Shown here one piece after another: positions 44,255 to 46,808 of a stretch of 64,000 nt of DNA. The number at the start of each line of letters is the position of its first letter. Position 1 is the stretch's first letter. Location of the stretch: assembly GCA_021399345.1 (NCBI GenBank), contig JAAFKI010000010.1, forward strand, positions 1-64,000, written 5' to 3'. Source of the stretch: Candidatus Heimdallarchaeota archaeon (GTDB taxonomy: Archaea > Asgardarchaeota > Heimdallarchaeia > Heimdallarchaeales > Heimdallarchaeaceae). The position numbers were made by a program, and so were the translations under genes. The notes under the pieces were generated by a model that saw only the letters and a list, made by a program, of their open reading frames with translations, had not been told where the DNA came from and made no database searches.

Positions 44255-45526
44255 CTAACTCAAATAAAATGAATCATTAATCATCTGATTCATATCATCA
44301 GCTGGTTTAATCAATTCTGTTAATCCCTTGTTAGTAAGTTGATAAATAGCTGGTCTTGGATAGCCAAACTGTTCACTCATTGAAATTGTATATGCTCCAC
44401 AATTGAGAACAACTAGTAAATCTCCTTCCTCAATCTCGAAATTGACTGCCTCATCACTCAGTATATCTACTGGGAGACATAATGGACCACCTATGTTTGT
44501 ATATTGTCCTTTTCCCCTGAAATTTGCAGGAACAACACTATAGTGCGAATATCGCATTGGAATTAGTGTATTTGCACCAACATCAATAAAAGCCCATTTT
44601 CTGCCCCACGATTTCTTTGTTCTTAACACCTTAGTAATTGCTACAAAACTATCCTCAATTAGGTATCTTCCTGGTTCAATGATTATTTTTTTGTTTTCAA
44701 TATTGTCCATTTTTGTAGAAACTTGTTCACCTAGTTTTTCTAATTGAAACCCCTCTTTATCTAGAGTTGATTTGCTTGCTAATCCTCCCCCCAAATTTAT
44801 TTCGGAGAGTGAAATAGCCAGTTTATCCTCCAAATCAGCAACATACTCATTAAGAAACCCAAGTAACTCATCATAAAACTCATGTGACGTTAGGTTTGTT
44901 CCAACATGAGTATGAACTCCCACTGGATCCAAATGAGGGCTTTTCTTGGCATATTCAAATAGTTTTACTCCTCGAGAATAGTCAATTCCTAATTTGCTGT
45001 TTTTCTTTATCAACAGCTTTCTTTCAGTAGTTTCTTTCAATTTTGGATGTATTCTAACCGTGATTTTTTGAACTAACTCTAGTTTTTCCGCTATTTTTTC
45101 TACTTGTTTTATTTCGTTAAGAGATTCAACATTAAGATGATTTATTTTATTTGCAATAGCATAATTCAATTCATCTAAAGTTTTTGCTGGACCATTAAGA
45201 ACAATTTTGTTAAAGGGTACTCCTGCTTTTTCTGCCAATTTCAATTCAAAAAGTGACATAGCTTCAATACCTAGATCAAGTTTGTGTGATTCTTGTAATA
45301 TTCTGCCTAGATAGTTAGCTTTTGCGGCATATGAAATGAATAAATCAGGAATATGCTTTCCTAACTTACTCTTTATTTCCAACACATTTTCTTTAAATCT
45401 TTGAAGGAGAAACAAGAAGAAAGGTGATGTCTTATTTTCTGCTAATGATTCTATGTCCTTCTGTTGAATCTGTAATTTGTTGTTTTCATAGCAAAGATAG
45501 GGGTAGTTCTCTATTATGTTTAACAT
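44255..45526 (-). CDS. PLP-dependent Orn/Lys/Arg/DAP decarboxylase family protein (alanine-racemase fold), substrate uncertain
   Basis: YAAKAN (PLP Lys), HTHVG, NLGGG, EPGR, GPLCLPVD and GAY motifs. Confidence 0.88.
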   Translation of the reverse strand: MLNIIENYPYLCYENNKLQIQQKDIESLAENKTSPFFLFLLQRFKENVLEIKSKLGKHIPDLFISYAAKANYLGRILQESHKLDLGIEAMSLFELKLAEKAGVPFNKIVLNGPAKTLDELNYAIANKINHLNVESLNEIKQVEKIAEKLELVQKITVRIHPKLKETTERKLLIKKNSKLGIDYSRGVKLFEYAKKSPHLDPVGVHTHVGTNLTSHEFYDELLGFLNEYVADLEDKLAISLSEINLGGGLASKSTLDKEGFQLEKLGEQVSTKMDNIENKKIIIEPGRYLIEDSFVAITKVLRTKKSWGRKWAFIDVGANTLIPMRYSHYSVVPANFRGKGQYTNIGGPLCLPVDILSDEAVNFEIEEGDLLVVLNCGAYTISMSEQFGYPRPAIYQLTNKGLTELIKPADDMNQMINDSFYLS

Positions 45527-45647
45527 ATTGCTCTTGCGCTTACTATAATATTCTCTTTAATTAATATTATCGCTTGGGAATATTATGTTTAAATTCCAAA
45601 TATGTCATTAGCCAGCATATTTTTGAATATCCTAAAGATTCTGATTT

Positions 45648-46808
45648 ATGGATAGAGATTCTATCTTCACCACCCTTTCTCAACTTGAAAACAATGTTAG
45701 ATTACAAGAGGGAATACATGGTATAATTAAATTTTTGGCTGTTATTGATAGATATCCTAACTACTCTATGATAAATTTGTCAAAAGAAGCTGGTTTTCCT
45801 ATTCCAATATGTGTGGCCATTAGAAATGAACTTACAAAAATTGGTTGGTGTTCAAAAGAAAGTGGTGGTACTGAAATCACTGAATTAGGTTCTGAAGTTT
45901 TATCAGAACTAGGAAAATTCAATGAATCTTTCTCTTGTATTGATTGTAATGGTAGTGGGCTAAAGCTTCCCCTTGAAAATTACAAAGATTCCTTGATACA
46001 AATTAGAAAATTTACAGATATGCGTGGTTCTCCAAATACTGTAATTGACCAATCGTTTGCTACAACAGAAACAAGTCTAGTTCGAGTTCTTACGATGGGT
46101 GACAACTATGATCTTTTCCATGAGAATTATGCGCTTGTAGGTGACAGTGACTTAACCTGTATTCCTTTAGCACTGTTTTCTAATTCTAAATCTAGAATAG
46201 TTGTTTTCGACATAGATACAAGAATTCGAGATATAATTGATTGTGCGAATAAAGAACTTATACTAAATATTGAGTTTGTGGAACATGACTTAAGAAAGAA
46301 TATTCCTGAGGAATATAAGAACCAGTTTGATTGCTTTGTAACTGATCCACCTTATACAATTAATGGTCTCAATCTGTTTATCTCTCGAGGTATACAGCTA
46401 ATAAATGATACTCAAGGTGGAAGTGGCTATCTTTCATTTGGAAGTAAACCACCTCAAGATCAACTTCAAATTCAGAAGAACTTGTCTAAAATGGGTTGTT
46501 TGTTTACCCATATTCTACCAAGATTTAATGAATATGTGGGCGCACAAAAACTGGGTGGGGTTTCAACTTTTTATCGATTGCAAATCTTATCTGATGCTAA
46601 ACCTCTCATAAGTACAGATTATGAAGGGATTCTTTATACTGGTGAAAGAAATCCAACAATAAGAGTTTATCAGTGTAAGAACTGTAAAAAAGAGATTGAA
46701 GTTGGTCAAGGTAACAATTTTGTAACCATCGAACAGCTAAAAGAGGTTGGTTGTCCGAAATGCAATTCCCATATCTTTCATAAAAAAGGAGAAAGAAAGA
46801 CAAAATGA
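45648..46808 (+). CDS. BpsA-like (branched-chain polyamine synthase family) aminopropyltransferase with C-terminal Zn ribbon
   Basis: N-terminal wHTH; CIDCNGSG, DQ, GDSDLT, FDID, HDLR and FDCFVTDPPYT motifs; C-terminal CKNC...CPKC. Confidence 0.8.
   Translation: MDRDSIFTTLSQLENNVRLQEGIHGIIKFLAVIDRYPNYSMINLSKEAGFPIPICVAIRNELTKIGWCSKESGGTEITELGSEVLSELGKFNESFSCIDCNGSGLKLPLENYKDSLIQIRKFTDMRGSPNTVIDQSFATTETSLVRVLTMGDNYDLFHENYALVGDSDLTCIPLALFSNSKSRIVVFDIDTRIRDIIDCANKELILNIEFVEHDLRKNIPEEYKNQFDCFVTDPPYTINGLNLFISRGIQLINDTQGGSGYLSFGSKPPQDQLQIQKNLSKMGCLFTHILPRFNEYVGAQKLGGVSTFYRLQILSDAKPLISTDYEGILYTGERNPTIRVYQCKNCKKEIEVGQGNNFVTIEQLKEVGCPKCNSHIFHKKGERKTK

Follow-up and report, generated by a model that had tools for sequence, protein, structure and literature searches.

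The stretch of DNA analyzed here (the window) comprises 64,000 nucleotides and is contig C53 of a 3.27-Mb archaeal assembly that is 88.6% complete. Its organism, which has 33% G+C and is no evident hyperthermophile, belongs to the Heimdallarchaeaceae, a family of Asgard archaea, in the same genus as 'Heimdallarchaeota AB_125'; the family includes two closed genomes, Ca. Heimdallarchaeum endolithica and Ca. H. aukensis. The window carries a divergent gene pair encoding a BpsA-family transferase, P0002, and a LysA-derived decarboxylase, P0001, which uses pyridoxal 5'-phosphate (PLP) and has the alanine-racemase (AR) fold. Together these may form a two-step aminopropylation module that works without a SAM decarboxylase, with a group transferred directly from S-adenosylmethionine (SAM) and decarboxylated afterwards, a reading that we place at about an even chance of being correct. 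An earlier note on the same letters had pointed to a GDSD motif and an extra C-terminal Zn ribbon in the transferase, a GPLC-LPVD motif in the decarboxylase, and the divergent arrangement of the two genes, all of which are present (the first three as VGDSDLT, CxxC...CxxC, and GGPLCLPVD). The core of the locus is laid out as follows.

45648–46808, plus strand: BpsA-family transferase P0002, 386 aa (Pfam, PDB, and Foldseek matches).
45527–45647, unstranded: divergent intergenic region, 121 bp, AT-rich, the presumed site of both promoters.
44255–45526, minus strand: LysA-derived PLP decarboxylase P0001 of AR fold, 423 aa (Pfam, TIGR models, and tree).
43709–44239, minus strand: CxxCxxCC protein (PF03692, YkgJ/FliB-type metal-binding), 176 aa (Pfam, 43.6 bits), 15 nucleotides downstream of the decarboxylase.

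P0002 combines a winged-helix-like domain at its N terminus, a catalytic domain of the class-I SAM-binding type in which GDSD and TDPPYT are found, and a Zn ribbon at its C terminus. It scores 158 bits against the Pfam family BpsA_C (PF01861; cut-off 27) and matches, over ~260 aligned residues, the Pyrococcus structure 2qm3 (E-value 1e-36) and the BpsA of Thermococcus kodakarensis (Tk-BpsA; 5xnc, E-value 2e-34). An AlphaFold2 model calculated with 73 homologs (pLDDT 92) returned the BpsA structures 2qm3, 5xnc, and 6j27 as its top Foldseek matches in the PDB, with E-values from 2e-22 to 9e-18. P0002 thus shares with BpsA (N4-bis(aminopropyl)spermidine synthase, EC 2.5.1.128; T. kodakarensis and T. 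thermophilus) its Pfam family, fold, N-terminal domain, DPPx(T) motif, and the equivalents of Tyr290 and Asp160, although it is only ~26% identical to Tk-BpsA and neither AdoMetDC nor SpeE was found in its genome. The alignment with Tk-BpsA stops at residue 298, and the acidic C-terminal cluster that serves Tk-BpsA as aminopropyl carrier in a ping-pong mechanism was not found in P0002, where the Zn ribbon and a Lys-rich tail, devoid of any acidic run, take its place.

The most informative difference lies at the donor site. Within the Gly157-Asp158-Asp159-Asp160 motif of Tk-BpsA, Asp159 and Asp160 form salt bridges with the aminopropyl amine of decarboxylated SAM (dcSAM) and are essential (PMC12979288). 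P0002 reads V-G-D-S-D-L-T at this point (Gly165-Asp166-Ser167-Asp168), where both 5xnc and 2qm3 have GDDD, and the HMMER alignment, with the 20-residue tag offset of the PDB entry counted, places Ser167 at the position of Asp159 and Asp168 at that of Asp160; the GDSD reported in the earlier note is therefore borne out by alignment to both structures. Asp233 (the Asp of DPPY, equivalent to Tk Asp225) and Tyr296 (Tk Tyr290) are retained. As Asp168, Asp233, and Tyr296 are all kept, the scaffold for propyl-chain transfer is preserved, and one negative charge beside the donor α-carbon is lost. The changes specific to the clade of P0002 are Ser167, Asn201, Gln300, Lys301, and Gly304, and a new Lys or Arg at position 300 or 301 is found in both decarboxylase-linked lineages (GAQK in Heimdallarchaeaceae and GARI, with Arg300, in family f22; f-numbers denote families and g-numbers genera within Heimdallarchaeaceae), whereas GDDD forms mostly have GAE or GAS. 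The net result of these changes is the loss of negative and the gain of positive charge. The four cysteines of the C-terminal ribbon (Cys343, Cys346, Cys369, and Cys372) are invariant among P0002 orthologs. The ribbon had previously been singled out as an addition to BpsA, and although its presence holds, it is not peculiar to P0002 and not diagnostic, since Paenibacillus and another Asgard family have GDDD homologs with such a ribbon.

P0001 consists of the Pfam domains Orn_Arg_deC_N and Orn_DAP_Arg_deC. It shares with LysA, the diaminopimelate (DAP) decarboxylase (DAPDC), the fold, the PLP-binding Lys (YAAKAN), and the EPGR, Cys, and GAY motifs. LysA is also its top-scoring named family, its best PDB matches are DAPDCs, and it is the sole LysA-like gene of its genome, so that P0001 could be the organism's LysA, its adjacency to the transferase being an inherited coincidence. 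However, P0001 reaches only 248.1 bits on TIGR01048 (lysA), below the cut-off of 297.9. Furthermore, the residues that define the DAP site are largely missing. In the Thermotoga DAPDC, meso-DAP is held at its distal carboxylate by Arg249 and Arg285 and at its distal amine by Glu315 of the CESGD motif (PMC8277567). In these regions canonical LysA has L-I-R-P-x-x-Y and C-E-(S/T)-G-D, and P0001 together with all of its orthologs has L-I-P-M-R-Y and C-L-P-V-D. The Arg of EPGR is kept, but the 'IRP' Arg (Arg285) is absent and the Glu of CESGD is replaced by Leu, leaving P0001 without two of the three DAP-specific residues. The GGPLCLPVD sequence aligns with CE(S/T)GD of LysA, confirming the specificity position to which the earlier note had assigned it. 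The note had also proposed looking for nesting within LysA and for a separate lysA: a tree built from 60 homologs unites the CLPxD sequences in a single clade (SH-like approximate likelihood-ratio test, SH-aLRT, 91) outside the CE(S/T)xD LysA group, and no LysA-like gene other than P0001 was found in the genome.

The surrounding metabolism points the same way. Searches of five Heimdallarchaeaceae genomes, two of them closed, detected no DapB, DapF, or LysX although their controls were positive, so that there would be no meso-DAP on which P0001 could act, and none of the sister families in the class carries a LysA-like gene in the survey of Asgard genomes described below. An identity as LysA was rejected on score, residues, the missing DAP pathway, and tree position, and we regard it as scarcely credible. 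Separately, one ortholog of the decarboxylase (G193:C54:46787-48046) contains an in-frame TAG, for which a sequencing error, a pseudogene, or recoding could account.

The distribution of the two genes was surveyed in 301 Asgard genomes, searched with P0002, P0001, AdoMet_dc, and Spermine_synth. A BpsA-like gene occurs in 28 of 28 Heimdallarchaeaceae genomes, and transferase and decarboxylase stand head-to-head in each of the family's 28 loci, at identities as low as 47% for the transferase and 55% for the decarboxylase. This pairing is far beyond chance, although the 28 loci are not independent samples, as the genomes are kin. Orthologs of P0001 with at least 55% identity are confined to Heimdallarchaeaceae (27 of the 28 genomes), and a relative of 40% identity is present in f22. 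The single f22 genome (G025) lacks AdoMet_dc and has a GDGD transferase with a CLPxD decarboxylase 3.5 kb away from it; on a metagenome contig of the f22 type (L101) the two genes are convergent and 28 nucleotides apart. Since this arrangement differs from the head-to-head order of Heimdallarchaeaceae, it suggests selection on the linkage beyond mere inheritance. Further CLPVD decarboxylases (P0155–P0160) were found in Logan.

AdoMet_dc (PF02675) was found neither in the window, in agreement with the earlier note, nor anywhere in the 88.6%-complete assembly, and it is missing from all 28 Heimdallarchaeaceae genomes, the two closed ones included, and from the one f22 genome. The eukaryote-type SAM_decarbox (PF01536) had no match in the window or the assembly, but neither had it in any of 14 control genomes. 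Elsewhere in Asgard the BpsA-family gene is either fused to AdoMet_dc in one frame of 460–507 aa (f5, f11, and f14) or adjoins an AdoMet_dc gene (f6, f12, f21, f23, and f24), several of these genomes also having SpeE. The AdoMet_dc-fused or -adjacent proteins of f5, f6, f11, and f14, together with those of Candidate Phyla Radiation (CPR) bacteria and Paenibacillus, are the closest to P0002, at 31–41% identity, and several have a Zn ribbon; unlike P0002, the AdoMet_dc-linked forms keep GDDD and have no linked AR-fold decarboxylase. As they lie mostly in genomes without a true SpeE, they are probably the main aminopropyltransferases there.

The donor motif follows this division closely. GDDD is kept in 49 of 49 AdoMet_dc-fused, AdoMet_dc-adjacent, Paenibacillus, CPR, and canonical homologs, and Ser or Gly occupies the middle position in 42 of 42 members of the other set, nearly all of them of Heimdallarchaeaceae type, plus the f22 protein and P0056. 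The pattern with which contigs were scanned contained GD[SG]DL, and the scan reaches near relatives only. A search of 1.84 billion representatives gave, among the 150 homologs listed (plus the query), 130 with GDDD and ~16 with Ser, Gly, Asn, or Met in mid-motif; the other GD[S/G/N]D lineages there are P0205, P0207, P0228, P0234, P0301, P0327, P0336, P0337, and P0343. The phylogeny against BpsA for which the earlier note had called places the GD[S/G]D proteins in a monophyletic clade (SH-aLRT 99) nested among AdoMet_dc-linked GDDD forms, with the canonical BpsAs beyond a branch of 95 support. Because of this nesting, the GD[S/G]D state is best regarded as derived. Across the survey, the substituted transferase residue, the loss of AdoMet_dc, and the gain of a linked decarboxylase co-occur.

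The remaining polyamine genes of the family were compared with this pattern. A true SpeE was not found in Heimdallarchaeaceae, where Spermine_synth gave only methyltransferase-like matches of 26–36 bits (true SpeE, 110–200 bits); a 33-bit match on contig C146 was considered as SpeE and rejected, being weak, partial, and common in many genomes. Deoxyhypusine synthase is nevertheless encoded in all six genomes tested, and the agmatinase family is represented by one or two genes. Of 30 family genomes, 28 also have a PdaD-like enzyme, a pyruvoyl arginine decarboxylase that carries a VSSIPP site, for instance:

G000, C169:160822-161376 (L120:2820-3377), minus strand: divergent PdaD-like gene, 185 aa, VSSIPP, 28 bits on PF01862, adjoining a glutamine-synthetase-like gene.

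The two genomes without it are the closed ones of Ca. Heimdallarchaeum.

These genes bear on a different division of labor, in which P0001 supplies an amine (from arginine, ornithine, lysine, or another amino acid) and P0002 adds some other SAM-derived group to it, for example by N-methylation via DPPY. DPPY is a usual motif of class-I methyltransferases that act on nitrogen, there are weak matches to N6-adenine methylase and HemK, and the closed Ca. Heimdallarchaeum genomes, lacking the PdaD-like gene, need another source of agmatine. In ornithine and arginine decarboxylases (ODC and ADC), however, the position of Glu315 is taken by an Asp that binds the side-chain amine or guanidinium (PMC8277567), and P0001 has Leu at this point. 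An identity as ODC or ADC was rejected on account of this Leu at the required Asp and of the separate PdaD-like gene. Most family genomes already have that gene, and amine supply by P0001 would leave unexplained why the change coincides with AdoMet_dc loss in a lineage among whose relatives both activities are fused. Such a role for the pair is distinctly improbable.

From the anatomy of the two genes, their residue changes, the phyletic pattern, and synteny, we infer the donor, the order of the steps, and the acceptor of the favored two-step route. First, P0002 would bind SAM and transfer its 3-amino-3-carboxypropyl group to an amine acceptor, with release of methylthioadenosine; the Asp that would clash with the carboxylate is gone from the transferase, which would permit SAM as the donor. 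Second, P0001 would strip the α-carboxylate of the transferred group to leave an aminopropyl group. In the classical route of AdoMetDC and aminopropyltransferase, decarboxylation comes before transfer; here the two would be reversed. With putrescine as the acceptor the predicted intermediate would be carboxyspermidine, and with agmatine it would be carboxyaminopropylagmatine, both of which are known from aspartate-semialdehyde routes. Attack of an amine on the γ-carbon of SAM is known from nicotianamine synthase. Direct transfer from SAM followed by decarboxylation by the partner had been suggested in the earlier note, and the loss of the donor residue, the loss of AdoMet_dc, and the linked non-LysA decarboxylase all lend it support of a comparative kind.

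A precedent for the same transfer-then-decarboxylate logic is offered by microcin C of Escherichia coli, where MccD moves 3-amino-3-carboxypropyl from SAM and the N-terminal domain of MccE, an AR-fold enzyme related to DAPDC, decarboxylates it (PMC7857480, PMC8503589). MccE belongs to a DAPDC-related clade and P0001 is likewise LysA-derived, but the likeness is one of reaction logic and not of sequence comparison. In the microcin system the group goes to a phosphoramidate in a peptidyl-nucleotide antibiotic and here presumably to an amine, and the transferase here belongs to BpsA_C; moreover, MccD and MccE are encoded in a plasmid antibiotic cluster and the Heimdallarchaeaceae pair is a family-wide chromosomal module. 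The module may be described as a new combination of known parts, with a BpsA-family transferase and a DAPDC-derived decarboxylase following MccD/MccE-like logic, and the interpretation given in the earlier note is partly supported.

The distribution of P0001 also admits the reverse order of events, in which P0001 is a new PLP-dependent SAM decarboxylase that took over from the pyruvoyl AdoMetDC and P0002 is an ordinary aminopropyltransferase using dcSAM. P0001 is present exactly where AdoMet_dc is missing, and in its place beside the transferase; SAM is an L-α-amino acid, and the hydrophobic CLPVD site could fit a bulky side chain. An enzyme using dcSAM would, however, be expected to keep the Asp that binds its amine, as the 49 GDDD homologs do, yet Ser or Gly is found in every decarboxylase-linked member. 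No such decarboxylase was described in the polyamine literature searched, and we know of no PLP-dependent SAM decarboxylase. We consider this reversal quite unlikely.

The routes that employ carboxyspermidine or carboxyaminopropylagmatine dehydrogenase (CASDH or CAPADH) and carboxyspermidine decarboxylase (CASDC) would have in common with the favored one both the intermediate predicted for it, an N-(3-amino-3-carboxypropyl)-diamine, and decarboxylation by an AR-fold enzyme as the last step (PMC10599626, PMC11999265); there the group comes from aspartate semialdehyde via an NADPH-dependent dehydrogenase, whereas SAM is its predicted source here. P0001 could itself be a carboxyspermidine or carboxyaminopropylagmatine decarboxylase with a partner of the saccharopine-dehydrogenase family elsewhere in the genome, the BpsA-like neighbor being unrelated. 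Proteins of ~380 aa with Sacchrp_dh_C are indeed found in 27 of 31 family genomes, and the hydrophobic residue after the catalytic Cys of P0001 recalls the C-L(AGD) motif that the earlier note gives for CASDC and carboxynorspermidine decarboxylase (CANSDC). The dehydrogenases, however, reach only 27–33 bits on the carboxynorspermidine synthase model NF043000 (cut-off 800), lie apart from polyamine genes, and are found in 74 of 83 genomes of the class irrespective of P0001 or AdoMet_dc; P0001 scores 39.7 bits on TIGR01047 (nspC; cut-off 409), and its conserved pairing with the transferase would be left unexplained. This route was rejected, its partner being ubiquitous in the class and not CASDH-like, and we hold it to be very improbable. 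Families f5, f6, and f7 have an additional saccharopine-dehydrogenase-family protein of ~445 aa that scores 270–295 bits on Sacchrp_dh_C (e.g. G136:C4:40050-40973), and Heimdallarchaeaceae have only the ~380-aa type.

As regards the acceptor, a small polyamine is favored because deoxyhypusine synthase is present, and it is possible that the module gives spermidine for this enzyme; an amine bound to a glycan or lipid is the alternative. The PdaD-like and agmatinase-family genes also speak for a polyamine, and no other source of aminopropyl groups was found in Heimdallarchaeaceae in the searches for AdoMet_dc and SpeE. In its fullest form, the proposal would be that Heimdallarchaeaceae make spermidine or aminopropylagmatine by direct transfer from SAM to agmatine or putrescine and a LysA-derived decarboxylase, a route that displaced the ancestral fused or adjacent AdoMetDC and whose product feeds deoxyhypusine synthase. 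We advance this fuller scheme only tentatively, as less probable than not.

The case for a glycan acceptor comes from the genes around the pair. Beyond the core, the window contains the following features, each assigned by family match or family search.

38410–39441, plus strand: archaeosortase/exosortase-family membrane protein (PF09721).
39436–40581, minus strand: family 4 glycosyltransferase (GT4).
40586–41470, minus strand: ArnD-like deacetylase.
41504–42742, minus strand: GT4.
42717–43706, minus strand: family 2 glycosyltransferase (GT2).
46886–49708, plus strand: genes downstream on the transferase side, a 559-aa protein without a family match and then a GT4.

The archaeosortase-family gene on the plus strand converges on the GT4, ArnD-like, GT4, and GT2 operon on the minus strand, an island that occurs in three genera only. 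Its synteny is kept in g1, g2, and g5 and not in g3 (G026) or g4 (G086). With the chemistry unchanged, the acceptor could therefore be a free amine on a glycan or glycolipid made by the neighboring glycosyltransferases and the ArnD-like deacetylase, and the product could be a primary amine used by the neighboring archaeosortase to anchor proteins; this is a sub-case of the favored chemistry that differs from it in the acceptor alone. In the window and in g1, g2, and g5 the pair sits amid the archaeosortase, GT4, ArnD-like, GT4, and GT2 genes, with the 559-aa protein and GT4 on its other side. The decarboxylase, CxxCxxCC, and GT2 genes are tightly packed on one strand, and contig L105 retains these three without the transferase. 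P0001 also matches the 'exosortase A system-associated' decarboxylase model TIGR03099 at 173 bits, although this is far under the cut-off of 478.

Other members of the family lack this context. In each of the 13 family loci examined, whether or not glycosyltransferase genes are present, the CxxCxxCC gene immediately follows the decarboxylase, and the same holds for L105. Ca. Heimdallarchaeum, genus g4, and the f22 type retain just the three-gene core of transferase, decarboxylase, and CxxCxxCC protein; in the closed Ca. Heimdallarchaeum genomes, g4, and f22-type loci alike it has no glycosyltransferase, deacetylase, or archaeosortase neighbor. Asp233, Tyr296, and the N-terminal domain are common to the AdoMet_dc-linked relatives, the contexts of which are housekeeping, and a pair that is universal in a family without SpeD or SpeE but with deoxyhypusine synthase fits a housekeeping polyamine role. 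Attachment to a glycan or glycolipid is thus unlikely, though we would place it first among the alternatives. The suggestion of the earlier note that the acceptor might be an amino sugar or lipid is neither supported nor excluded by these findings, as glycan genes flank the pair in three genera and are absent from Ca. Heimdallarchaeum and g4. One locus of f5 (L042, G256:C1:4763500-4773000) has its BpsA::AdoMet_dc fusion between a CTP_transf_1 cytidylyltransferase, a UbiA prenyltransferase, and a myo-inositol-1-phosphate synthase, a membrane-lipid context that might hint at a lipid acceptor for the f5 branch.

Several observations weigh against the two-step route itself. Its support is comparative throughout, and most of the assemblies are 72–95% complete. 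The association amounts to about two events (Heimdallarchaeaceae and the f22 type) plus one rearrangement, so that the counts are not independent. On contig L105 the decarboxylase, CxxCxxCC, and GT2 genes are present and there is no transferase within 2.4 kb upstream. Homologs in PF02675 can be arginine or ornithine decarboxylases (PMC10407285); consequently, to call the relatives of P0002 'AdoMetDC-linked' is itself a deduction. Loss of the middle Asp does not by itself demand a decarboxylase, since a paralog on C169 has GDMD and no partner. Finally, the third gene of the core, constant as it is, has no role in the model.

If the two-step route is correct, transfer first and decarboxylation after would constitute a third, undescribed way to a near-universal metabolite; to our knowledge, all characterized polyamine aminopropylation draws either on dcSAM, made by pyruvoyl AdoMetDC, or on aspartate semialdehyde, through a dehydrogenase. 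No publication describing the pair was found in a literature search on SAM-dependent carboxyaminopropylation in polyamine synthesis and on Asgard polyamine pathways. The route would account for the polyamine supply of an Asgard family with deoxyhypusine synthase and without SpeD or SpeE, and it would mean that a BpsA-family aminopropyltransferase can become an aminocarboxypropyl transferase by few changes (Asp to Ser or Gly and a new Lys or Arg). As the lineage is near the archaeal ancestor of eukaryotes, it would also matter for how polyamine metabolism is reconstructed at the archaeal root of eukaryotes.

The paralog mentioned above (C169:233741-234508; L003:1447-2310) is a shorter BpsA_C protein of 287 aa with no N-terminal domain and with its own C-terminal Zn ribbon. 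It is followed by an OapC-like Zn-ribbon protein. All family genomes have such a paralog, as do f2 and f4 (GDFD and GDAD), in no case with a decarboxylase partner.

In most relatives of the window a gene for a metallo-β-lactamase-fold protein (~224 aa) directly follows the transferase (L061, L063–L066, L068–L070, L072, and L073). It is missing in the window, where a gap of 78 nucleotides (46808–46886) is found, and also in G130 and G163. Methionyl-tRNA synthetase is encoded in the window as a single open reading frame (ORF) of 683 aa (50019–52070) that joins the core and the C-terminal tRNA-binding domain, and is split into ORFs of ~572 and 108–118 aa in L061 (G003; 14477–16535) and L064 (G193; 14679–16734).

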